From NCBI GenBank assembly GCA_040081715.1, contig JBEBFY010000003.1:6524-70523 (forward strand): 64,000 nucleotides of DNA. Reading direction: 5' to 3'. The position numbers were made by a program, and so were the translations under genes. Source of the stretch: Vicinamibacterales bacterium (GTDB taxonomy: Bacteria > Acidobacteriota > Vicinamibacteria > Vicinamibacterales > UBA2999). Below, piece after piece: positions 7,765-41,771 of the stretch; the stretch's first letter is position 1, and each line of letters starts with the position of its first letter. The notes beneath the pieces are model-generated. The model was not told the origin of the DNA. It saw only the letters and a program-made list of their open reading frames with translations, and made no database searches.

Positions 7765-7841
7765 CGGGGCGTGGCTCAGCCTGGTAGAGCACTCGGTTCG
7801 GGACCGAGGGGTCGCTGGTTCGAATCCAGTCGCCCCGACCA
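7765..7841 (+). tRNA. tRNA-Pro (anticodon CGG), CCA encoded
   Basis: Hand-folded cloverleaf. Acceptor CGGGGCG/CGCCCCG, D arm GCTC/GAGC, anticodon arm CTCGG-TTCGGGA-CCGAG, T arm GCTGG-TTCGAAT-CCAGT. 77 nt. Confidence 0.9.
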
Positions 7842-15376: not shown

Positions 15377-17065
15377 TCAGCCCGGCTCGGGATCGGGCGC
15401 CACCGGCAGGTGCAGGGTGAACGTGGACCCGCGGCCGGGTTCGCTTTCCACCGTGATCCGGCCCCCCATCAGCGTGGCCATGCTGCGTGCCAGCGCGAGG
15501 CCGAGACCCGTGCCGTGAATCTGGGCGGCCACAACAACGGGGCTTCGGTAGAACGGCTCGAAGATGCGGCCGCGGTCCGCGGGATCGATCCCGAGCCCCC
15601 GGTCCGTGACGGCCACCCGGACTTCGCGGGTTCCGGAGGGGTCTATGGCCGAAAAGGCATGCACGCCGATCCAGCGGGCGTTGCCGCTGTATTTGAGCGC
15701 ATTGGTCACGAGGTTTTCGACGCACTGGGTGAGGGCGGTCTGGTCTCCCAGTACCGGCGGGAGGTCCGACTCAACGACTCGTTCAATGGTGAATTGGCCC
15801 GCGTCCGCCAGCGTGACGGTGCTCGCGAGCGTGGCGTCGATCGCGTCGGTCACCGTAATCGGCTGCAGGGGGCGGCGCGTGCCCTTGCCCTGGCCCGCGA
15901 AGAGCAGGATGCGCTCGACGAGCGAGGCGAGCTGACGGACCTGTTGTCCGATCACCGTGCCGTACTCCGCCACGCGGGTCTGTTCGCGGACCACGCCACG
16001 GCTGATGTTGTCGGCCGCGGAGGCGATGACGGTTAGCGGCGTCCGCAGTTCATGCGAGACGGCTGCGACGAAGTCCATCTGCAGCGTCGCCAGCCGCTGC
16101 GCGCGGTGGCTCGCCACGACGAGCAGGGCGATGGAGGCCACCAGCAGGGCCAGGGCGCCGAGCGTTGCTACCAGATCCCGGCGCTGCGTGTTGGCGAGAA
16201 AGGCACCGAGCGCTCCACCACGGCGGTGGCGGACCACCAGGCGCCAATCCCCGGCGTCGCCGGAACCCTCGGGCAGGGCGAACCAGGTGATGGCGGCCGA
16301 GGGTACCTGCGCCTGTGGCGCCACGGTGTGGAACACCTCGAAGGGGCCACCCGACTGAGGGCTGGAGCGCCGGCCGAACACATTCAGGATGCCGTCGGCA
16401 TCAGGCGCCTGTGCCTGGCTGAAGCCGGCGTCGGAAGCCCAGAGTGCTGCTGGCTGGGCGGTGAAGACGGCGACCTCGTAGTCGAGGCCATCGGTGCCCG
16501 AGAAGTACCGCAGCGCGAGTGCCGGCAATACCGTCTCGCGGAGCACCGCGGGATCGATCGCCACGACCAGCCACCGGGGGACGTCGCTTCCCGCGATCGG
16601 CCGTGTCAGTGCCGGGAGCCCCGGGTGAAACATCCACGCTGTCGAGCCAGGACCGTCGAGCCGGAGTGCCAATGTGTCGTGCGGCACCAGCATGCCGCTG
16701 TCGGGGAGTACGCGCCGAGTCGTCGCCGGCTGGCCACCCCTGCCGGCCTCGTGCACGAACAGGCCCCGGACCAGGCCGGGGTACCGCGCGCTCCGCCGCC
16801 AGTCGGCGAGTCCTGCCGCGAGTGCCTCGGCGGACGCATCCCCTGGTGCGTGCAGATCCAGCGCGCGTGTGATGTCGGTGAAGTTGCGCTCGAAGTCCAC
16901 GTGCCAGTTGACCAGCGACATCTGCAGCGTGTCCGCCAGCCGCACGCCGGTAGCTTCGGTGATCTCACGGCTCGACCGGTACTGGAGAACGGCGAACGCG
17001 ATCAGGACGACCGTCGTGGCCACGACGGCGCCGGTCAGCAGTTGTCCCTGGGCTGGGGCCTTCAT
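15377..17065 (-). CDS. sensor histidine kinase (periplasmic-sensing)
   Basis: HisKA box VSHELRTPLT and HATPase G-boxes (TDRGLGI, GTGLGLALA). The N-terminal TM starts at MKAPAQGQLLTGAVVATTVVLIAF. Its ATG overlaps the response-regulator stop (ATGA at 17062-17065). Confidence 0.8.
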   Translation of the reverse strand: MKAPAQGQLLTGAVVATTVVLIAFAVLQYRSSREITEATGVRLADTLQMSLVNWHVDFERNFTDITRALDLHAPGDASAEALAAGLADWRRSARYPGLVRGLFVHEAGRGGQPATTRRVLPDSGMLVPHDTLALRLDGPGSTAWMFHPGLPALTRPIAGSDVPRWLVVAIDPAVLRETVLPALALRYFSGTDGLDYEVAVFTAQPAALWASDAGFSQAQAPDADGILNVFGRRSSPQSGGPFEVFHTVAPQAQVPSAAITWFALPEGSGDAGDWRLVVRHRRGGALGAFLANTQRRDLVATLGALALLVASIALLVVASHRAQRLATLQMDFVAAVSHELRTPLTVIASAADNISRGVVREQTRVAEYGTVIGQQVRQLASLVERILLFAGQGKGTRRPLQPITVTDAIDATLASTVTLADAGQFTIERVVESDLPPVLGDQTALTQCVENLVTNALKYSGNARWIGVHAFSAIDPSGTREVRVAVTDRGLGIDPADRGRIFEPFYRSPVVVAAQIHGTGLGLALARSMATLMGGRITVESEPGRGSTFTLHLPVAPDPEPG

Positions 17066-17757
17066 AAACCCTGCGGCCGGAACTTGTAGCCCAGCCCCTG
17101 CACGGTGACGAGGTACCGCGGCTGCCGCGGCTCCGGCTCCAGCTTCTGCCGGAGGCTGGCGACGTGGACGTCCACGGTGCGCGTGAACATCTTGCTGCTG
17201 TAGCCCCACACGTCCGTCAGCAGTTGCTCGCGGGTGAGCGTCGCCCCTGGATGTTCGAGAAAGTAGCGGAGCAACTGGAACTCGCGCGCCGAGAGTGGCA
17301 GCGACTTGCCATCCCGAATGACTTCAGTGCCCCGCAGGTCCACGCGGTTCGGGCCGATGTGCACGACCTCGGCTGAGGCCACCGCCCTGGCCGGCGCCCG
17401 GCGAAGGAGGGCCTCCACGCGGGCCATCAGTTCCTGCATATCGAAGGGCTTGGTGACGTAGTCGTCCGCGCCGATTTTGAGCCCGGCCACTTTGTCGGCG
17501 GTCTGGCCCTTCGCGGTGAGCATCAGGATGGGGGTGATGAGGCCGGCCGCCCGGATGTCCTCACAGACCCTGAGGCCGTTCAGTCCCGGCAGCATCACGT
17601 CCAGGATCACGAGGTCGAAGGGGAGCCGCGTGGCCTTTTCGAGGCCGTCCGGTCCGTCGGTCGCGTACTCAACCCCATATCCTTCCGAGCGTAGGCGGTC
17701 GCCCAGCGTCATCCGCAGCGCGGCTTCGTCTTCGACGAGGAGAATGTTGTCCTGCAT
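17062..17757 (-). CDS. OmpR/PhoB-family response regulator
   Basis: REC domain (ILLVEDE...LVILDVMLPG...LTAK) plus a winged-helix output domain (LSAREFQLLRYF...RTVDVHVASLRQKL). Confidence 0.9.
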   Translation of the reverse strand: MQDNILLVEDEAALRMTLGDRLRSEGYGVEYATDGPDGLEKATRLPFDLVILDVMLPGLNGLRVCEDIRAAGLITPILMLTAKGQTADKVAGLKIGADDYVTKPFDMQELMARVEALLRRAPARAVASAEVVHIGPNRVDLRGTEVIRDGKSLPLSAREFQLLRYFLEHPGATLTREQLLTDVWGYSSKMFTRTVDVHVASLRQKLEPEPRQPRYLVTVQGLGYKFRPQGL

Positions 17758-17775
17758 ACGGCTTCGTGCTCAGCC

Positions 17776-17804
17776 TTGACGGGATCCGGGGCCCCGGCTA
17801 CACT
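17776..17804 (+). promoter_or_regulatory. candidate sigma-70 promoter of the ilvB leader (TTGACG-17 nt-TACACT)
   Basis: The -35 box is at 17776-17781 and the -10 box at 17799-17804, with a 17-nt spacer. It lies in the divergent intergenic region. Confidence 0.4.
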
Positions 17805-17815
17805 GATCCGGTCAG

Positions 17816-17956
17816 ATGCCCCAGCAATTCCAGGCCATGAGTGCTCTTTCCGTCAACGGCGTCGCCGCCGGACGGAGACGTGTGCCCGCAGCCGGGATTG
17901 CCATTATCAGCATTATTAGCATTCCGGGCATCGGCAGCCCGGAATACGGTGGATGA
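17816..17956 (+). CDS. Ile-rich leader peptide of an ilvB transcription attenuator
   Basis: Translates as MPQQFQAMSALSVNGVAAGRRRVPAAGIAIISIISIPGIGSPEYGG*. There are 6 Ile in 9 codons, mostly the rare ATT codon. An alternative in-frame ATG is at 17837. The stop TGA (17954-17956) lies inside the antiterminator strand. Confidence 0.6.
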   Translation: MPQQFQAMSALSVNGVAAGRRRVPAAGIAIISIISIPGIGSPEYGG

Positions 17957-18007
17957 TGCAGGCATAGCCTGACGCCAAGGCAAGCAAGTTCCGAGGCCAT
18001 CATCCAC
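17949..18007 (+). promoter_or_regulatory. antiterminator helix of the ilvB attenuator
   Basis: GTGGATGATG (17949-17958) is perfectly complementary to CATCATCCAC (17998-18007). This pairing is mutually exclusive with the terminator stem. An upstream pause-type hairpin pairs ATTCCGGG (17921-17928) with CCCGGAAT (17938-17945). Confidence 0.6.
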
Positions 18008-18025
18008 ACGGGTGATGGCCTTTTT
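17995..18025 (+). terminator. intrinsic terminator in the ilvB 5' leader
   Basis: GGCCATCATCC-ACAC-GGGTGATGGCC (11 bp, one G-U) followed by TTTTT, 41 nt upstream of the ilvB ATG. Confidence 0.7.
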
Positions 18026-18066
18026 CATTGGTGCGGCCGATAGAAGTTCAGACGAGAGAGCGAATC

Positions 18067-19788
18067 ATGAAGCGAACTGGTGCACAGGCAATATGGGCGT
18101 CGTTGGAACAGGAAGGCGTGACCACCGTATTCGGCTACCCGGGTGGGGCGATTTTGCCGACCTATGACGCGCTGCCGGACTTCCCGTCCATCCGGCACAT
18201 CCTAGTGCGCCATGAGCAGGGCGCCACGCACATGGCCGACGGCTACGCACGCGCCGGTGGCCGCGTCGGCGTGGCCATTGCCACCTCCGGCCCCGGCGCC
18301 ACGAACATGGTCACCGGCATGGCGACGGCCATGATGGACTCGTCGCCGATTGTCTGCATCACCGGCCAGGTGGGATCGGCGCTCATCGGCACGGAGGCTT
18401 TTCAGGAGACGGACATCACGGGCGTTACCCTCCCCGTCACCAAGCACAACTACCTGGTGACGAAGGCCGAGGACATCGCTCCGACGCTGCGTGAAGCCTT
18501 CTACGTGGCGCGGACGGGCCGGCCAGGCCCGGTGCACGTGGACATCACCAAGGATGCGCAGCAGAACAGTTGCGAGTTCGAGTGGGGTGAGAGCGAGATC
18601 TCGCTGCCCGGCATCAAGACCCATCGCCCCGTTGCGGCCGAGTCGCTCCGGAAAGCCGTGGAGTTGATCAACAACGCCAAGTGCCCACTGATCTTCGCGG
18701 GCCACGGCGTGCTGCTCTCCGGGGCCGTCGATGTGCTGCGTGAGTTGGCCGAGCGGGGCAACATTCCGGTGGCGATGACACTGCTGGGCATCGGCGGATT
18801 TCCGGCCCAGCATCCGCTCAACCTCGGGATGATGGGCATGCACGGGGAGGCCTGGGTGAACCACGCCATTCAGGAGGCGGACCTCATCGTGGCGTGCGGC
18901 ATGCGGTTTGACGACCGCGTGACCGGCAATCTGAAGAACTACGCACCCAACTCGAAGAAGATCCACATCGACATCGACACGACAGAGTTCAACAAGAACG
19001 TCCGGGTGGACGTGGCGTTGGCCGGCGACCTGCGTCAGGTGCTCCTCCAACTCGTCCCGCACGTGAACCGCGTCCGGCACGAGGAGTGGCACGCGCGCAT
19101 CGACGTCAACAAAGGCCACGCCGCCGTGCGCGACATCACCAACCTGCCCGACGACGGTCACCTGTATGCCGCGCATGTGATCCACGACCTGTGGAAGGCC
19201 ACCGACGGCAAGTCCATCGTCTGCACCGACGTGGGCCAGCACCAGATGTGGGAGGCGCAGTACTACAAGCACAACGAGCCGCGGACACTGCTGACCTCCG
19301 GCGGCCTCGGTACGATGGGCTTTGCCCTGCCGGCGGCTATCGGCGCGAAGATGGCGTGCCCGGATGCCGACGTATGGGCCGTGGCCGGCGACGGCGGGTT
19401 CCAGATGACCATGCCCGAACTGGGCACCATGGCCCAGGAACACATCAAGGTCAACGTCGCCATCATCAACAACGGCTACCTCGGCATGGTGCGGCAATGG
19501 CAGCAGTTCTTCTATGAGAAGCGCTACACCGCCACGCCAATCCTCAGCCCGGACTTCGCGAAGGTCGCAGAGGCCTATGGACTGAAGGGCCAGACGGTCC
19601 GGCAGCGCAGCGAGGTGATTCCTGCGGCCCTGGCGGCGCGCGCGCACAGCAAGGGCGCGATCATCGACTTCCAGGTGGAGCAGGAGGATTCGGTGTACCC
19701 GATGGTGCCCACCGGTGCGGCATTGCACGAGATGATCACGCGCGGCGGCGTGGCCAACCCGATCGTGGAAACCAGCGCCAGCGTCTGA
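18067..19788 (+). CDS. ilvB: acetolactate synthase (acetohydroxyacid synthase) large subunit, biosynthetic type
   Basis: N-terminal GAQAIWASLEQEGVTTVFGYPGGAILP and TPP motif GDGGFQMTMPELGT...NNGYLGMVRQWQ. The ATG at 18067 is chosen over the track start at 18028. No ilvN follows it. Confidence 0.9.
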   Translation: MKRTGAQAIWASLEQEGVTTVFGYPGGAILPTYDALPDFPSIRHILVRHEQGATHMADGYARAGGRVGVAIATSGPGATNMVTGMATAMMDSSPIVCITGQVGSALIGTEAFQETDITGVTLPVTKHNYLVTKAEDIAPTLREAFYVARTGRPGPVHVDITKDAQQNSCEFEWGESEISLPGIKTHRPVAAESLRKAVELINNAKCPLIFAGHGVLLSGAVDVLRELAERGNIPVAMTLLGIGGFPAQHPLNLGMMGMHGEAWVNHAIQEADLIVACGMRFDDRVTGNLKNYAPNSKKIHIDIDTTEFNKNVRVDVALAGDLRQVLLQLVPHVNRVRHEEWHARIDVNKGHAAVRDITNLPDDGHLYAAHVIHDLWKATDGKSIVCTDVGQHQMWEAQYYKHNEPRTLLTSGGLGTMGFALPAAIGAKMACPDADVWAVAGDGGFQMTMPELGTMAQEHIKVNVAIINNGYLGMVRQWQQFFYEKRYTATPILSPDFAKVAEAYGLKGQTVRQRSEVIPAALAARAHSKGAIIDFQVEQEDSVYPMVPTGAALHEMITRGGVANPIVETSASV

Positions 19789-19802
19789 GTCGGCGGCCGG
19801 GG

Positions 19803-21983
19803 TCAGTAGTTCAGCAACGCCTTGGCCGCGGCCACAACCTTGGCCGTGGTCGGCAGGTGGGCCTCTTCCAGCTCCGTGGCGAATGGCACCGGTGTGTTGG
19901 CCGCGGCCACAAGCTGCACGGGCGCGTCGAGGTCGCTGAACGACGCGCGGACGATCTCGGTGACGATGGTGGTGCCGAAGCTGCCCGTGCGCGGCGCCTC
20001 GCAGGTGACGAGCACACGGTTGGTCTTCTTCACCGACGCGGCGATGGTCTCGATATCGAGCGGCAGCACGGTGCGCAGGTCGATGACCTCGGCGGCGATG
20101 CCCTCCTTCGCCAGTTCCATGGCGGCCTCGGCGGCGCGGATCGTCTGTGAGCCAAACGACACGATGGTGAGGTCCTTGCCCTCGCGGATCACGCGGGCCT
20201 TGCCGATCGGCACCACGTAGTCCTCCTCGGGCACGGGCAGGTTGAGCCCCTCGGGAAGCCGCTCCGGCTTGATGCGGTAGTAGTTCTTGTACTCGAGAAA
20301 GAGCACCGGGTTGCCGTCGCGCACGGCGGCCTTGAGCAGCCCCTTGGCGTCAAAGGCCGTGATGGGCGCCACGATCTTCAGCCCCGGCGTGGAGGCGAAC
20401 CAGGACTCGGGGTTGACCGAGTGGTAGATCGAGGTGTTGGTCGCCCAGCCGGACGGGAAGCGCAGGACGATCCCGACGGGGCCCATCTCCCGGACGTTCT
20501 GGGTGGCTGCGTAGTTGACGATCATCTTGAAGGCTTCCGACGCGAAGTCGGCGTACTGGAACTCGACGATTGGCGTCAGCCCGGCCAGTTGTGCGCCGAG
20601 CGCGATGCCGACATAGCCGGCTTCCGCAATCGGGGAGTCGATGATGCGGCGCTGACGGAACGGGGCGTCCTTCTTGTCCCACGACTCGGCCCAGTCGATG
20701 CCGTCGTAGCGCTTCGAGAAGCCCTCGCTGATTTTGAAGGCGCCGTTGCTGACGCCGATGTCCTCACCGATCATGAAGACGTTCGGGTCTCGGTCCAGTT
20801 CTTCCTGGAGCCCCTCGCGAATCGCCTGGTGATAGGTGATCGACTTGCCCGTGCCCGTGGGCACAACGAGCGGGTTGGCGTGGACGGGCGCGGGCGCGAA
20901 CACCTGCGACTCGATGTCGATGGCCACCGGCCTCGGGCTCTCTTCCGTCTTGAGAGCGGCAGCCAGCACTTCGGCCGTCACGCGGGAGTCGATGTCGCCC
21001 AGCTCGCTCTCCGAGGCCACGCGGGCCTTGAGGAGGCGGTCGCGGAAAGTGACGATCGGGTCCTTGGCCTTCCAGGCATTGAGCTGCTCGGCGGGCACGT
21101 AGGACGTGAAGGGGTCGGCCAGCGAGTGACCGTCCATGCGCATCGTGGCGGCTTCGATGATGGTGACGCCGCCGGTCTCGCGTCCCCGGGCCACGGCCTT
21201 CGACACCGTATCAAAGACGGTGACGACATTGGTGCCGTCGATCCAGTAGCCCTCGGTCTGCTTGCCGTAGCCGAGCGCGCGCAGCGTGAGCGTCGGGGCG
21301 GAATACTCAAGCCGGTTCGGCGTGCCGAACGCCCACTGGTTGTTCTCGATGACGAGCACCAGGGGAATCCGCATCACCGCGGCGATGTTGAGCGCCTCGT
21401 GCACGTCGCCTGTGCTGGTCGTGCCGTCACCGACGAAGGCCAGCGCCACGGAGTCTCTGCCCTGATACTGCTCGCCGAAGGCGCACCCCGCCCCAAGGGG
21501 AATCAGCGTGCCGAGATGGCTGATGAGGCCCACCACCTTCGAGGCCTTGTGGCCCATGTGGAGGCTGCCGTCCCAGCCACCGGAGAGCCCGTCCATCCGG
21601 CCGCAGGCCTGGGCGATGACACGCGAGGGCGGCACGCCGCGCACGAGGAAGGCTCCAAGGTCGCGGATGGCGAGCGTGGCCCAGTCGCCTGGCTGCAGCG
21701 CCGCGGTGGCGCCCACGGCCGTGGCCTCGTTGCCGGTGCAGGGCAGGTGCTTGCCGAGGGCGATGCCCTTGCGCGACATCTTGACGATCTCAAGATCGGT
21801 CGCCCGCGTGAGAGCCATGTAGTAGTAAAGGCGGAGGAGCTGGTCCTTCGAGTACCCGTCGAGGACGGGTGCCGGCACCCACGAGAGGCCGGAAGAAGAG
21901 ACGTGGAGCGACTTCTGGTCGAGGTCGCGCGTGACGTCAGTCTGTTCGAGTTCCTGGTAGATGCCGGCCAAGGAGCTAATCAT
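19803..21983 (-). CDS. 2-oxoacid dehydrogenase E1 component, fused alpha/beta subunits (TPP-dependent)
   Basis: The N-terminal half is E1-alpha-like (GDGTTSTGDVHEALNIAAV). The C-terminal half is E1-beta/transketolase-like (IGEDIGVSNGAFKISEG, IIDSPIAEAG). 726 aa. Confidence 0.8.
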   Translation of the reverse strand: MISSLAGIYQELEQTDVTRDLDQKSLHVSSSGLSWVPAPVLDGYSKDQLLRLYYYMALTRATDLEIVKMSRKGIALGKHLPCTGNEATAVGATAALQPGDWATLAIRDLGAFLVRGVPPSRVIAQACGRMDGLSGGWDGSLHMGHKASKVVGLISHLGTLIPLGAGCAFGEQYQGRDSVALAFVGDGTTSTGDVHEALNIAAVMRIPLVLVIENNQWAFGTPNRLEYSAPTLTLRALGYGKQTEGYWIDGTNVVTVFDTVSKAVARGRETGGVTIIEAATMRMDGHSLADPFTSYVPAEQLNAWKAKDPIVTFRDRLLKARVASESELGDIDSRVTAEVLAAALKTEESPRPVAIDIESQVFAPAPVHANPLVVPTGTGKSITYHQAIREGLQEELDRDPNVFMIGEDIGVSNGAFKISEGFSKRYDGIDWAESWDKKDAPFRQRRIIDSPIAEAGYVGIALGAQLAGLTPIVEFQYADFASEAFKMIVNYAATQNVREMGPVGIVLRFPSGWATNTSIYHSVNPESWFASTPGLKIVAPITAFDAKGLLKAAVRDGNPVLFLEYKNYYRIKPERLPEGLNLPVPEEDYVVPIGKARVIREGKDLTIVSFGSQTIRAAEAAMELAKEGIAAEVIDLRTVLPLDIETIAASVKKTNRVLVTCEAPRTGSFGTTIVTEIVRASFSDLDAPVQLVAAANTPVPFATELEEAHLPTTAKVVAAAKALLNY

Positions 21984-23167: not shown

Positions 23168-23197
23168 TGGACGCTCCCAATCGGGAAGTGCTAAAGT
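23168..23197 (+). promoter_or_regulatory. candidate promoter (TGGACG-18 nt-TAAAGT) for the plus-strand Cys leader
   Basis: Weaker match. The -10 (23192-23197) lies 12 nt upstream of the leader ATG at 23210. Confidence 0.25.
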
Positions 23198-23209
23198 GCT
23201 GATCAGTCC

Positions 23210-23287
23210 ATGGTTCCGGCTACCTGCCCGTGCGCGTGTTGTTGTTGCATGAGGCCCTCTTCGGGGGCCCGCGGCAGAAGTCTGTAG
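23210..23287 (+). CDS. Cys-rich leader peptide (25 aa) of the cysDN attenuator
   Basis: Translates as MVPATCPCACCCCMRPSSGARGRSL*. Six Cys fall within eight codons (23225-23248), including TGT TGT TGT TGC. A terminator follows 55 nt later. Confidence 0.6.
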   Translation: MVPATCPCACCCCMRPSSGARGRSL

Positions 23288-23341
23288 GTCCGGACGTTCG
23301 GACGGGAAACGCGCACTGAACCACGCGCAACAGATCTGAGG

Positions 23342-23372
23342 CCCGGGACCCATCGGTCCCGGGTTTTTTTTT
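23342..23372 (+). terminator. intrinsic terminator in the cysD 5' leader
   Basis: CCCGGGACC-CATC-GGTCCCGGG (9 bp perfect) followed by nine T residues. It ends 14 nt before the cysD ATG. Confidence 0.8.
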
Positions 23373-23386
23373 GCTGACAGCCGACT

Positions 23387-24337
23387 ATGCCTACTGCACA
23401 ATCCGTCGCCGGTCCGGCCTCAGGCGCCACGCCCCAGCCGCGGCTCGACCATCTGCGCCGCCTTGAGGCGGAGAGCATCCACATCCTCCGAGAGGTGGTG
23501 GCCGAGTTCGAGCGGCCGGTGATGATGTACTCGGTCGGGAAGGACTCGTCGGTGATGCTGCGCCTGGCCCAGAAGGCGTTCCACCCGGCGCCCATTCCGT
23601 TCCCGCTGCTGCACATCGACACGACGTACAAGTTCAAGGAGATGATCGAGTTCCGCGACCGCATGGCCGCCGAGGTCGGGGCGAAGCTCATCGTTCACAT
23701 CAACAAAGAAGCCATCGCCGACGGGACGCAGCCCTTCAAGGTGGGCACGCAGCGCTGCTGCCAGTTGCTCAAGACCACGGGCCTTCTCGACGCCCTGGCT
23801 GAAGGGCAGTTTGACGCGGCGTTCGGCGGTGCCCGCCGCGACGAGGAACGGTCCCGCGCCAAGGAGCGGGTGTTTTCGCTGCGCGACACGCACGGCCAGT
23901 GGGACCCGAAGCGGCAGCGGCCGGAACTTTGGAGCCTGCTGAACAGCCGGCTGAATCCAGGGGAGAGCATCCGCGTGTTTCCGCTGTCCAACTGGACCGA
24001 GATCGACATCTGGCAGTACATCCATGCCGAGAACATCCCCGTGGTGCCGCTCTACTTTGCGAAGGAGCGGGAGGCCCTCGTGCGTGGCGACTCGATTCTC
24101 GTCAGGGAGCAGTCGTTCGTGCCCATGCTGCCCAGCGAGAAGACACAGATGGTCAAGTGCCGGATGCGGTCGCTCGGGTGCTCGCCCTGCACGGGTGCCA
24201 TCCGGTCCGACGCCACGACGGTGCCGATGATCATCGAAGAGCTGGTGGCGGCGCGGAACTCCGAACGGCAGCTCCGGATCATTGACCACGACCAGGACGG
24301 GTCCATGGAAGTGAAGAAGCGCGAGGGCTACTTCTAG
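23387..24337 (+). CDS. cysD: sulfate adenylyltransferase subunit 2 (CysD)
   Basis: [36 protein letters not shown] (PAPS-reductase-like fold) and C-terminal [18 protein letters not shown]. Confidence 0.9.
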
Positions 24338-25641
24338 TGCCGGGACTCCTCCGCATCTGTACCGCTGGCAGCGTCGACGACGGCAAGAGCACGCTCATCG
24401 GGCGGCTGCTGCACGACTCGCGGTCCGTCTACGAGGACCAGATCTCCTCGGTGCAGAAGGCCTCGAAGAACCGGGTGGCCGGTCCGATCGACTTTTCGCT
24501 GTTCACCGACGGCCTGAAGGCGGAGCGGGAGCAGGGCATCACGATCGACGTGGCGTACCGGTACTTCGCCACGGCGCATCGCAAGTTCATTCTGGCCGAC
24601 ACGCCGGGCCACGAGCAGTACACGCGCAACATGGCCACCGGGGCGTCGACCGCGGACCTGGCCATCCTGCTGGTGGACGCCAGGCAGGGCGTCAAGGATC
24701 AGTCGCGCCGGCATGCCCGGATCGCGCGCCTGCTCGGGATCACGCACTTCGTGGTGGCCGTCAACAAGATGGACCTCGTGGGGTTCGACAAGGCCATCTA
24801 CGACGGCATCTGCGCGGAGTTCGCCGAGATCCTCAAGGGGTCCTCGTTTCATGCCATCCCGATGAGTGCTCTCGAGGGCGACAACGTCATCGCGCTCAGC
24901 GAGCGGACGCCCTGGTTTACCGGACCGAGTCTGCTGGAGCACCTGGAGACCGTCGAAGTCGATACGGATGTGACGGCGAAGCCCTTCCGGTTTCCGGTGC
25001 AGATCGTGCTGCGGCCTCACCAGGACTTTCGCGGCTACGCCGGGCAGATTCAGTCCGGCATCGTGCACCGCGGGGATGAGGTGACGGTGTGGCCGTCCGG
25101 CCGGTCCACGGCCGTCAAGCGCATCGTGACCTACGACGGCGACGTGGAGACGGCGTTTGCCCCGATGTCGGTCACGCTCGTCCTCGAGGACGAAATCGAC
25201 ATCAGCCGTGGCGACACGCTCGTGGCCGGTCCCGTGCAGGTGGGGCAGCGCTTCCAGGCCGACATCGTGTGGATGGACGAGCGGCCGCTCGACCCCACCC
25301 GCATGTATGTCCTCAAGCACTCCACCCGCGTGGTGACGGCCGAGATCGACCGCCCGTTCGAGCTGAACGCGATCCATTCCGCGGTGGTCCGCACGTCGCG
25401 GCCCATCATCTTCGACAGCTACACGGACAACCGTGCCACGGGCAGCTTCATCCTGATCGACCCGGCCACCAATTTCACCTGCGGTGCCGGGATGATCGGT
25501 CTGCCGACCGAGGACGACCGCGCCAGTCGCGCGAACGAAGGTGCCGCAGAGCGCCTGGCCAGAATTGCCCGGGCGGCCGCTACCGATGCGGAGGCCGTGG
25601 CCGCGGTGCGGGCGGCACTCGAGGACATCATCAAGTACTGA
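24337..25641 (+). CDS. cysN: sulfate adenylyltransferase subunit 1 (CysN GTPase), no CysC fusion
   Basis: GTPase boxes GSVDDGKSTLIGRLL, DTPGHEQY and NKMDL. The GTG start overlaps the cysD stop (TAGTG). 434 aa, so no APS-kinase domain. Confidence 0.9.
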   Translation: MPGLLRICTAGSVDDGKSTLIGRLLHDSRSVYEDQISSVQKASKNRVAGPIDFSLFTDGLKAEREQGITIDVAYRYFATAHRKFILADTPGHEQYTRNMATGASTADLAILLVDARQGVKDQSRRHARIARLLGITHFVVAVNKMDLVGFDKAIYDGICAEFAEILKGSSFHAIPMSALEGDNVIALSERTPWFTGPSLLEHLETVEVDTDVTAKPFRFPVQIVLRPHQDFRGYAGQIQSGIVHRGDEVTVWPSGRSTAVKRIVTYDGDVETAFAPMSVTLVLEDEIDISRGDTLVAGPVQVGQRFQADIVWMDERPLDPTRMYVLKHSTRVVTAEIDRPFELNAIHSAVVRTSRPIIFDSYTDNRATGSFILIDPATNFTCGAGMIGLPTEDDRASRANEGAAERLARIARAAATDAEAVAAVRAALEDIIKY

Positions 25642-41695: not shown

Positions 41696-41771
41696 GGCCA
41701 GGTAGCTCAGTCGGTAGAGCACGTGACTGAAAATCACGGTGTCGGGGGTTCAATTCCCTCCCTGGCCACCA
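41696..41771 (+). tRNA. tRNA-Phe (anticodon GAA), CCA encoded
   Basis: Hand-folded cloverleaf. Acceptor GGCCAGG/CCTGGCC, anticodon arm CGTGA-CTGAAAA-TCACG, T arm GGGGG-TTCAATT-CCCTC. 76 nt. Confidence 0.9.

Follow-up and report, generated by a model that had tools for sequence, protein, structure and literature searches.

An isoleucine-rich leader and a predicted transcription attenuator upstream of a solitary ilvB gene in a soil Vicinamibacterales bacterium

A solitary ilvB gene and its leader promoter

Does a short, isoleucine-rich reading frame upstream of ilvB make the expression of this gene depend on the supply of isoleucine, and is isoleucine-only control of such a gene unusual? Acetohydroxyacid synthase (AHAS) serves both the isoleucine branch and the valine/leucine branch, and in E. 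coli the AHAS genes of ilvBN (leader ivbL) and ilvGMEDA (leader ilvL) are subject to classical four-segment ribosome-mediated attenuation. The E. coli leaders are about 32 amino acids long, with valine and leucine codons (ilvBN) or isoleucine, leucine, and valine codons (ilvGMEDA), and each lies before genes for both a large and a small subunit. Most work on leader-peptide attenuation concerns Proteobacteria, Actinobacteria, and a small number of Firmicutes. The locus that we consider here, at 17776-18066 on the forward strand of a 64-kb window (the whole stretch of DNA that was analyzed) from a soil Vicinamibacterales bacterium, differs from both E. coli systems in that its regulatory codons are for isoleucine only and no small-subunit gene is nearby.

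The gene at 18067-19788 (forward strand) encodes the 573-amino-acid large subunit of a biosynthetic acetolactate (acetohydroxyacid) synthase. It matches TIGR00118 over residues 4-558 with 729.5 bits (the cutoff is 538.35), and its homologues carry three ThDP-enzyme domains (PF02776, PF00205, and PF02775). A Shine-Dalgarno-like GAGAGAG precedes it at 18054-18060 (forward strand). ilvB is monocistronic: the next gene, for a fused E1 dehydrogenase (19803-21983, reverse strand), is convergent, and the gene upstream of the leader is divergent. The initial annotation held that no ilvN adjoins ilvB, and indeed no homologue of ilvN (at E <= 1e-3) or of ilvD is found in the window. In nearly all other relatives ilvN directly follows ilvB, while in the close clade a convergent E1 dehydrogenase gene (in one case a response-regulator gene) is found in its place.

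The candidate promoter reads as first described, with a -35 hexamer TTGACG (17776-17781), a 17-nt spacer, and a -10 hexamer TACACT (17799-17804) that ends 11 nt before the leader ATG, all on the forward strand. It is the sole sigma-70-like match in 17000-20500 (0.4 expected) and it is kept in all eight aligned loci: TTGAC is invariant, the -10 hexamer has the form TA[C/G]ACT, and 10-11 nt separate it from the ATG. Given this short distance, the 5' UTR of the leader would be only a few nucleotides long. The leader ATG is not preceded by a Shine-Dalgarno sequence, so the leader would have to be translated from a leaderless or near-leaderless start, which we assume. The constant spacing between the -10 hexamer and the ATG and the conservation of the ORF are indirect signs that the leader is translated. 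A precedent is the ilvBNC operon of Corynebacterium glutamicum, where transcription starts 1 nt from the leader start codon (PMC11857589); a start practically at the ATG matches the 10-11 nt gap in our locus.

The leader peptide and its isoleucine codons

The leader ORF (17816-17956, forward strand, supported by its reading frame and its conservation) has 46 codons followed by TGA at 17954-17956 and encodes MPQQFQAMSALSVNGVAAGRRRVPAAGIAIISIISIPGIGSPEYGG. A second in-frame ATG at 17837, which would give 39 codons, had been offered as another possible start. Both ATGs are there, but conservation favors the first: the start-codon column at 17816 is invariant in the aligned loci, and the ATG at 17837 is not conserved.

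The putative regulatory codons, ATT GCC ATT ATC AGC ATT ATT AGC ATT and then CCG GGC ATC, lie at 17897-17932 (forward strand). There are six isoleucines in the nine codons at 17897-17923 and a seventh at 17930-17932 (five ATT and two ATC), and the run ends 25-57 nt upstream of the leader UGA. Across six frames of the window, this is the only stretch with at least five isoleucines in nine codons; in 12 genes of the window, isoleucine accounts for 3.6% of codons. The earlier description of the run as six isoleucines in nine, mostly the rare ATT, is correct in its counts (ATT makes up 16% of the isoleucine codons in those 12 genes). The argument from rarity is weak, however, because a single tRNA-Ile normally reads both ATT and ATC. 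The ATT bias in the leader may instead have a role in RNA pairing. In homologous leaders, ATT makes up 64% of isoleucine codons, as compared to 21% in ilvB genes.

Conservation of the leader in related genomes bears directly on whether it is a regulatory element. The promoter, the position of the ATG, the isoleucine run, and the RNA elements described below (the P hairpin, segments 2, 3, and 4, and the U-run) are retained in all seven distinct related loci, where ilvB is 81-94% identical, and 10 further isoleucine-rich leader peptides among metagenome proteins show the same pattern. The seven loci differ freely in the N-terminal two thirds of the peptide and in the spacer that precedes ilvB, and the isoleucine run is kept while neighboring residues change. 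(Scans of genome and metagenome contigs for IlvB returned mostly relatives of <=72% identity, and locus L081 was the only close one among the matches listed; the close relatives were reached by protein search and contig look-ups, of which 5 in 12, those for P0007, P0010, P0016, P0017, and P0133, gave no DNA.) The leader ends at the UGA in segment 2 in seven of the eight close loci, and in L081 it ends at a UAG 11 nt further on. In L081 and in the leaders P0130-P0132, GGUGGAUGAUG is read in another frame as W-M-M and the stop comes 11 nt later, which implies that the constraint there is on the RNA and not on the peptide.

Alternative pairings in the leader RNA

The RNA of the whole leader folds more stably than shuffled sequences (z = −5.97), and its parts (all on the forward strand) form the segments of a classical attenuator. 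Segment 1, the isoleucine-codon stretch GCAUUAUUAGC at 17910-17920, is predicted to pair with segment 2 if no ribosome covers it. In the minimum free energy (MFE) fold, 17910-17917 (GCAUUAUU) pairs with 17952-17959 and 17919-17920 pairs with 17949-17950. This 1:2 pairing is weak, includes many G-U pairs, and shifts in register from one sequence to the next, but it is present in the full-length MFE folds of all eight. As the isoleucine codons themselves pair with region 2, the layout is the full classical one with four segments, which goes beyond a mere pause hairpin. Within the 1:2 structure lies the P hairpin, ATTCCGGGC / GCCCGGAAT (AUUCCGGGC / GCCCGGAAU) at 17921-17945. It was proposed in the initial annotation, and folding gives it 9 bp and a 7-nt loop; it is a candidate RNA polymerase pause hairpin.

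Segment 2 (GUGGAUGAUGC, 17949-17959) is the 5' strand of the antiterminator and holds the leader stop codon (UGA, 17954-17956). As the initial annotation stated, 10 nt of it (GTGGATGATG, 17949-17958) are the exact complement of CATCATCCAC (17998-18007) in the 5' arm of the terminator. Shuffling the upstream segment 20,000 times produced a complement of at least 10 nt in 9 cases. Nested in the antiterminator is a small hairpin, CAGGC AUA GCCUG (17959-17971, from folding), and relatives have hairpins with other sequences at this site (for example GGCGU...ACGCC or GGGC...GCCC). Segment 3 (17993-18007, from folding and conservation) comprises the 5' arm of the terminator (17993-18005) and, overlapping it, the 3' strand of the antiterminator (CAUCAUCCAC, 17998-18007). 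Segment 4 (18010-18025, from folding) is the 3' arm, GGGUGAUGGCCUU, followed by the U-run (UUUUU, to 18025). The terminator and its T-run were thus rightly recognized, but the stem, first placed at 17995-18020, is two pairs longer on each side: it has 13 bp (17993-18022, 7 of them GC pairs) around an ACAC loop, with −23.3 kcal/mol. The ATG of ilvB (18067-18069) lies 41 nt past the U-run, as had been noted.

Structure prediction, a check that the initial annotation proposed, gives the classical 1:2 / 2:3 / 3:4 scheme in eight of eight sequences. For full-length RNA, the MFE structure is always 1:2 plus 3:4. With the isoleucine region masked and the transcript truncated ahead of segment 4 (the state that matters kinetically), the MFE structure is always the 2:3 antiterminator; in the window, the 2:3 structure has −27.6 kcal/mol as compared to −23.3 for the terminator. 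In full-length folds with a ribosome mask, the terminator is still preferred. At equilibrium and with no ribosome, 2:3 often beats the weak 1:2 pairing, so the outcome in the state without translation depends on kinetics.

A family of ilv attenuators in Acidobacteriota

By its sequence, the element belongs to a family of Acidobacteriota ilv attenuators that we define by the covariance model R1. Among 168 related ilvB loci there are 43 members. R1 matches the window exactly once (108.3 bits, E = 4e-24), a score that follows by construction as the window sequence is in the seed alignment; L001, L006, L009, L012, L018, and others are independent members from outside the seed. Attenuators of Acidobacteriota ilv operons are recovered by this one model at 41-107 bits. 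(Terriglobales leaders were missed by a strict scan for perfect-stem terminators and were found by a looser one.) The core of the family, GGAUGAUG / CCAUCAUCC / GAUGAUGG, is nearly invariant and is followed by a U-run, upstream of an ilv gene. GGAUGAUG, in segment 2, is invariant in 22 of 22 sequences and holds the leader stop codon, which lies inside segment 2 in nearly all members; CCAUCAUCC, in segment 3, is almost invariant across 39 members.

Relatives also show some of the covariation that a conserved structure should leave. In the antiterminator, pairing reaches 91.7% across 39 members and 12 cells are compensatory (UA/CG, and GC/AU in L006 and L009); none of 500 shuffles reached this level of pairing and compensation. 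Over 39 sequences, 97.4% of the terminator cells are paired, and an outer pair shows an AU/GC swap. The site of the P hairpin folds into a hairpin of 4-11 bp in all 22 members considered, with differing stem sequences. In the covariance-model alignment, the P hairpin is 52% paired in columns and not in one register, so its support comes from the single-sequence folds. RNAalifold on the 22-sequence alignment found the terminator alone. As the helix cores are invariant, most of the support for the structures is conservation rather than covariation; pair counts on a MAFFT alignment of eight sequences had little power for the same reason, namely that the helix cores never vary.

A T-box or a known riboswitch was also considered, and it is rejected: no Rfam family matched at gathering or permissive thresholds. 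At gathering scores, the whole window gave no match except for two tRNAs, and at E <= 10, 17700-18120 gave only a chance snoRNA match. The element matches none of the curated Rfam families, which include the Leu, His, Thr, and Trp leaders, the T-box, and ilvB-type motifs. A literature search for isoleucine-only ilvB leaders or for ilv attenuators in Acidobacteria found nothing specific.

Across the family, the codons in the leader vary with the genes downstream. In the eight loci with a lone ilvB, the last 28 residues of the leader include 5-8 isoleucines, 0-2 valines, and 0-1 leucines. The 34 other members with a recovered leader (L022 is a member whose leader was not recovered) all have mixed leaders that contain valine or leucine and precede ilvB-ilvN operons, with ilvD, pheA-ilvD, or an HMGL-like synthase gene coming before ilvB-ilvN. 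Within the family, an isoleucine-only leader directly before a solitary ilvB is found only in the clade of the window.

Proposed mechanism

All of the parts of a classical attenuator are present: a leader ORF, an intrinsic terminator, a mutually exclusive antiterminator, a stop codon in the expected place, and the 1:2 pairing. We think it probable that the locus is a leader-peptide attenuator of transcription, mediated by the ribosome, through which the expression of ilvB depends on charged tRNA-Ile. From the sequence elements, their conservation, the alternative pairings, and the compensatory changes, we infer the following sequence of events, from the start of transcription through pausing and stalling to the response to isoleucine. 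Transcription would start a few nucleotides before the leader ATG at 17816. A ribosome would then translate the 46-codon leader while RNA polymerase moves on, probably pausing at the 17921-17945 hairpin. With ample isoleucine, the ribosome would reach the UGA at 17954-17956 and cover segment 2 (17949-17959), so that segment 3 pairs with segment 4, and the 13-bp terminator and the U-run would stop transcription about 41 nt before ilvB. If charged tRNA-Ile is scarce, the ribosome would stall in the isoleucine run (17897-17932), leaving segment 2 uncovered and unpaired. Segment 2 would be free to pair with segment 3 (17998-18007) once that is made, no terminator would form, and ilvB would be transcribed. 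Without translation, segment 1 (the isoleucine codons) would pair with segment 2, leading to termination. The initial annotation had proposed the two central steps, that the antiterminator strand is hidden once a ribosome reaches the stop codon and that it stays free if the ribosome stalls on the isoleucine codons, and both the comparative evidence and the folding support them.

How else might these features be explained? The 46-codon ORF could encode a functional small hydrophobic peptide, with the hairpins being an ordinary terminator or due to chance. Indeed, gene callers predict the ORF in several metagenomes (the predicted homologues have 45-53 amino acids). We find this explanation hardly credible, as the N-terminal two thirds of the peptide are not conserved, the frame-shifted variants keep the RNA sequence and not the C terminus of the peptide, the divergent neighbor means that no upstream gene on the same strand needs a terminator, and the 10-nt complementarity is both rare by chance and conserved. 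It is also unlikely, if less so, that the terminator and antiterminator are real but are switched by something other than stalling at isoleucine codons, such as general translation or its coupling to transcription (starvation, ppGpp, or Rho/NusG) or a factor that binds GGAUGAUG / CCAUCAUCC in the RNA. Over 39 members, valine/leucine leaders included, the core hardly varies, and a plain helix would not need that much conservation; yet the need to pair with two or three partners would by itself keep a segment invariant, with no further factor. The ilvB leader of Streptomyces coelicolor is non-classical, in that its candidate regulatory codons could be mutated without effect (as reported in PMC1262725); even a convincing leader is thus no guarantee of classical attenuation. 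What speaks for stalling in our locus is that the regulatory codons track the type of operon (isoleucine only with a lone ilvB, rich in valine and leucine with ilvB-ilvN), that the isoleucine run persists although neighboring residues change, and that the stop codon is in segment 2 in nearly all members.

A question closer to the proposed mechanism is what the attenuator reports. It is quite possible, although it is not what we would expect, that it works as described but that the signal is the general supply of branched-chain amino acids, with the charging of tRNA-Ile as a mere proxy and with no isoleucine-dedicated role for the enzyme. This would fit the two-branch role of AHAS. It would also fit Staphylococcus aureus, where a leucine-rich attenuator peptide acts on shared branched-chain genes along with isoleucine sensing through CodY (PMC5794164). 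On the other side, the ancestral family has mixed codons, and the shift to isoleucine only coincides with the loss of linkage to ilvD and ilvN, which suggests a changed role rather than drift. A rather doubtful but more specific idea is that the lone IlvB is a dedicated isozyme for isoleucine starvation: a copy of the ancestral attenuator and ilvB would have lost ilvD and ilvN, and the leader codons would have turned to isoleucine only while the RNA core stayed fixed. If so, then falling charging of tRNA-Ile would induce a catalytic subunit that is free of the valine-sensing small subunit, functionally comparable to AHAS II of E. coli, which resists valine, and this would be a clean natural case of a change in attenuator specificity by codon replacement alone.

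Comparison to known attenuators

We return to attenuation by isoleucine stalling, our preferred reading. It does not amount to a new mechanism. Judging from its sequence, the element is a known kind of attenuator that is unusual only in its retuning from mixed valine/leucine/isoleucine to isoleucine alone. The initial annotation had called isoleucine-only control unusual, and this holds insofar as the leader differs from the mixed leaders of its own family and of E. coli, but not for single-amino-acid control as such, which has a precedent in the leucine-rich peptide of S. aureus, acting on shared branched-chain genes (PMC5794164).

Its true homologues are the other Acidobacteriota ilv attenuators (for example those of L002, L003, L019, L082, and L018), with a common core, the stop codon in segment 2, the P hairpin, and the U-run. 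The leaders of the Acidobacteriota operons differ in being rich in valine or leucine (for example ..SVVVGVHGAGAIIAPAASG and ..LLALSVAILGLVLAPLG) and in having longer 5' UTRs. The element in the window would descend from this wider family with mixed leaders, with the codons becoming isoleucine-only in a subclade of Vicinamibacterales, where the attenuator is now directly before a lone ilvB.

The C. glutamicum ilvBNC attenuator (IlvL, MTIIRLVVVTARRLP) is similar in layout, with the leader directly upstream of ilvB and alternative hairpins followed by a terminator, and its dependence on translation has been shown experimentally (PMC11857589, PMC10272879). There is no sequence similarity between the two, and the C. 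glutamicum leader has 15 amino acids with mixed isoleucine, valine, and leucine and precedes ilvB-ilvN-ilvC, whereas ours has 46 amino acids, isoleucine only, and one gene. Mycobacterium tuberculosis ilvB1NC likewise has a uORF rich in branched-chain amino acids, a ribosome footprint at the stop codon that masks the antiterminator, and a Rho-independent terminator (PMC13236596). Unlike our locus, it has mixed LVVI codons and a three-gene operon that includes ilvN, and its support is SEnd-seq, ribosome profiling, and reporters, whereas that of our element is its sequence.

The locus and its 42 relatives make up a well-defined and easily searchable family of ilv attenuators for Acidobacteriota. 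Across this one homologous RNA, the amino acid that is sensed appears to change, from mixed valine/leucine/isoleucine to isoleucine, upon rearrangement of the operon. The family should also improve the annotation of uncultured soil bacteria, in which the leader is now labeled as a hypothetical protein or missed, and the attenuator might serve as a compact isoleucine-responsive part.

Finally, the window contains another attenuator that is built in the same way, with a cysteine-rich leader (MVPATCPCACCCCM..) before cysD. It is conserved and has a clear terminator, which suggests that this lineage uses the mechanism more than once. In mycobacteria, short leaderless polycysteine ORFs perform sensing for the downstream operon (bioRxiv 10.1101/834739). 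The cysD leader is their direct counterpart, and the ilvB leader has a similar near-leaderless build with another amino acid and another operon. For mycobacteria, candidate cysteine leaders have been described upstream of cys operons with no obvious terminators (PMC1262725); in contrast, both the ilvB and the cysD elements in the window have clear ones.

A putative leader-peptide attenuator upstream of ilvB

The gene ilvB (18067–19788, plus strand) encodes the large subunit of biosynthetic acetohydroxyacid synthase (TIGR00118, 729.5 bits versus a cutoff of 538). Because it is flanked by a divergent OmpR-type response regulator and histidine kinase upstream (minus strand) and by a convergent gene (19803–21983, minus strand) for a predicted fused E1 alpha+beta 2-oxoacid dehydrogenase (726 amino acids; E1_dh, Transket_pyr, and Transketolase_C), ilvB is monocistronic. 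There are no homologues of ilvN or ilvD within the window and no other branched-chain amino acid genes among the 24 flanking ORFs that we scanned. As only 19 nt separate the start of the response-regulator gene (17757) from the −35 hexamer of the leader promoter, the regulator must be transcribed from a promoter that sits within the ilvB leader region, on the opposite strand.

The region ahead of ilvB appears to be a real, conserved, and classical leader-peptide attenuator. We recovered the promoter, leader ORF, hairpin, antiterminator strand, and terminator where the initial annotation had placed them, with the ilvB ATG corrected to 18067 and a slightly longer terminator stem. The promoter (TTGACG at 17776–17781, a 17-nt spacer, and TACACT at 17799–17804, plus strand) is the sole sigma-70-like site in a 3.5-kb scan (0.4 expected). 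The leader ATG (17816) follows 11 nt later and opens an ORF of 46 codons on the plus strand that stops at TGA 17954–17956; the final 20 residues of the peptide are GIAIISIISIPGIGSPEYGG. (A second ATG, suggested as an alternative start, is not conserved in relatives, so we place the start at 17816.) The leader contains seven Ile codons, of which five are ATT; by comparison, 3.6% of the codons in 12 window genes encode Ile, and just 16% of those are ATT. Nowhere else in the 64 kb, in any frame, are there at least five Ile per nine codons.

Folding suggests the four-segment layout of a textbook attenuator, somewhat more canonical than was first proposed. Segment 1 is the Ile-codon stretch. Segment 2 (GTGGATGATG, 17949–17958), the 5' strand of the antiterminator, contains the stop codon and is the exact complement of CATCATCCAC (17998–18007), which is part of the 5' arm of the terminator. 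Segments 3 and 4 are the arms of this terminator, a 13-bp stem (17993–18022) followed by a U-run. A 9-bp hairpin (17921–17945), which we term the P hairpin, is a candidate pause site for RNA polymerase. (All of these are on the plus strand.) A complement as long as GTGGATGATG/CATCATCCAC arose in 9 of 20,000 shuffles, and the fold of the whole leader has z = −5.97.

In agreement with the proposed switch, competing 1:2, 2:3, and 3:4 helices are predicted. At full length, the minimum free energy structure of all eight sequences contains both the terminator and a pairing of the Ile-codon stretch (in the window, GCAUUAUU at 17910–17917) with GAUGAUGC (17952–17959) around the hairpin. With the Ile region masked, as by a stalled ribosome, and the transcript ended before the 3' arm of the terminator, the 2:3 antiterminator was the minimum free energy structure of all eight (for the window sequence, −27.6 kcal/mol, versus −23.3 for the terminator alone). 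As folding prefers the terminator over the antiterminator at full length, the choice must be kinetic, as in classical systems.

Conservation of the attenuator

In a protein search, the window's IlvB belongs to a tight clade (78–97% identity, with matches beneath it at 74% or less). We compared the DNA of seven distinct members (ilvB loci L162, L161, L165, L081, L168, L166, and L163). All seven have the promoter (TTGACG-N17-TA(C/G)ACT, then ATG after 10–11 nt), an ORF of 46–53 codons with the Ile run, the hairpin, GGAUGAUG, CCAUCAUCC, GGRUGAUGG, and the U-run; thus the leader ORF, whose conservation the initial annotation had set as a test, is kept. The peptide is variable over its N-terminal two thirds, and so is the spacer preceding ilvB. 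Gene callers had already called homologous leader ORFs in metagenomes, and a profile search found ten further leader peptides, all with I.I(S/G)II(S/G)IPG. Four of the leaders (L081 and proteins P0130–P0132) translate GGUGGAUGAUG as W-M-M in a shifted frame, with a stop 11 nt later, so the constraint there acts on the RNA. These +1-frame leaders (2709–2870 in L081) end in WMMPA or KRWMMRA, with UAG or UAA as the stop; the later stop is also present in the window, out of frame (GCAUAG, 17961–17966).

In the clade loci, ilvB has neither ilvN nor ilvD as a neighbour. Synteny of the regulator-kinase pair extends to most of these loci but not to all (L161 lacks the pair), and the convergent E1 gene is beside ilvB in most (L161, L162, L163, L166, and the contigs of P0010, P0016, and P0017).

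We screened 168 fetched ilvB loci first by pattern and then with a covariance model built from 22 sequences (R1); the RNA core is present at 43 of these loci, and there is one match in the window. Outside the clade, the element lies 1.7–2.9 kb upstream of ilvB and is followed by ilvD, pheA-ilvD, or an HMGL-like (isopropylmalate/citramalate-type) synthase, and then by ilvB-ilvN. Family attenuators with Val/Leu-rich leaders occur in many Vicinamibacteria and Terriglobia; homologous attenuators lie about 1.0–1.3 kb into loci L002, L003, L008, L010, L019, L045, L082, L083, and others, and near 1.3–1.6 kb into L018, L036, L124, and others. Terminator pairing stands at 97.4% over 39 members, and one outer pair shows an AU/GC swap. 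The antiterminator is 91.7% paired, and the search for covariation that had been suggested yielded 12 compensatory cells there (for example GAAUGAUG/CAUCAUUC in L006 and L009); such support was not reached in any of 500 shuffles. No Rfam match to the leader element was found (at gathering score, the window matches Rfam only at two tRNA genes, 7765–7838 and 41696–41768, plus strand), nor was any description in the literature that we searched.

A hairpin folds at the P position in 22 of 22 members, with diverse stems (UUCCGGGC, GCCGGCGC, CGGGUGU, CCGGCAC). Across the family there is little variation in the cores GGAUGAUG, CCAUCAUCC, and GAUGAUGG; in the family alignment A6, the near-invariant columns are GGAUGAUG, GCCAUCAUCC, and GAUGAUGGC (window 17951–17958, 17996–18005, and 18012–18020). 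This is probably because each core pairs with two partners, but a sequence-specific reader may instead recognize the invariant core. AUC, an Ile codon, and its complement GAU make up the core motif. The cores stay near-invariant even in genomes with an IlvB of only 66–72% identity, although terminator stems normally drift.

Amino-acid specificity of the leaders

Within the last 28 residues, the eight clade members have 5–8 Ile, 0–2 Val, and 0–1 Leu. The leaders recovered outside the clade are mixed and mostly Val- or Leu-rich (0–5 Ile, 1–8 Val, 0–9 Leu; for example SVVVGVHGAGAIIAPAASG, YLVVVVRSVGVIITPAASG, and LLALSVAILGLVLAPLG). Sequence-unrelated ilvB leaders of other Acidobacteriota and Polyangia are mixed too. 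So, the Ile-only leader appears to be a derived state, and the shift to Ile alone coincides with an attenuator directly before a solitary ilvB. The attenuator thus seems to record an evolutionary change of the sensed amino acid. The initial annotation had called control by Ile alone unusual. It is derived within this family, but a Leu-rich attenuator peptide in S. aureus gives single-amino-acid control of shared branched-chain genes (PMC5794164), which tempers the claim.

Unrelated-looking ilvB leaders with terminators (such as GVVVVVSLIISLLLV and LEIVVVVRLV) were seen in L071, L072, L149, L154, and L052 (Polyangia and others) and, within Terriglobia, in L023, L024, L055, L058, L097, and L157, so there are several sequence families of ilvB leader attenuation in these phyla.

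ATT makes up 64% of the leader Ile codons versus 21% in the adjoining ilvB genes. As ATT and ATC are normally served by one tRNA, we think that weak A-U/G-U pairing with GAUGAU is at least as good an explanation of this bias as slow decoding.

Proposed mechanism

Transcription would start a few nucleotides before the leader ATG, so the leader would be translated without a Shine-Dalgarno sequence. The C. glutamicum ilvBNC transcript, which begins one nucleotide ahead of the leader start codon, is a direct precedent for this near-leaderless layout (PMC11857589). We propose that RNA polymerase pauses at the P hairpin and that, when Ile-tRNA is short, the ribosome stalls at the Ile codons, leading to read-through. 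A ribosome at UGA 17954–17956 would cover segment 2, with segment 3, which begins 37 nt beyond, out of reach. This logic is common to the ilv leaders of E. coli, ilvBNC of C. glutamicum (PMC11857589, PMC10272879), and ilvB1NC of M. tuberculosis, whose regulatory codons are LVVI (PMC13236596). A caution for the classical reading comes from S. coelicolor, where the candidate codons of an ilvB leader were mutated to no effect (PMC1262725).

IlvB may be the sole acetohydroxyacid synthase of the organism, with ilvN elsewhere, or it may be an extra isozyme for Ile starvation. Identity falls off smoothly in both CysD and IlvB (88% and 81% in the L163 genome, about 80% and about 72% in other Acidobacteriota), which fits plain orthology, though there may also have been an old duplication.

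A second candidate attenuator

A second candidate leader-peptide attenuator (23168–23376, plus strand) lies upstream of cysD (23387–24337) and cysN (24337–25641). A −10-like TAAAGT (23192–23197) is followed 12 nt later by the ATG (23210) of a leader ORF, MVPATCPCACCCCMRPSSGARGRSL, with six Cys in eight codons and its stop at 23285–23287. Next comes a 13-bp terminator (23338–23367) with a nine-T run, roughly 10 nt ahead of the cysD start codon; all of these are on the plus strand. The element resembles the polycysteine leaderless attenuators of mycobacteria (bioRxiv 10.1101/834739), and Cys-rich leaders with the same terminator are also found in L162, L161, and L163 (in L163, the sequence is ACCCCCCCRCC).
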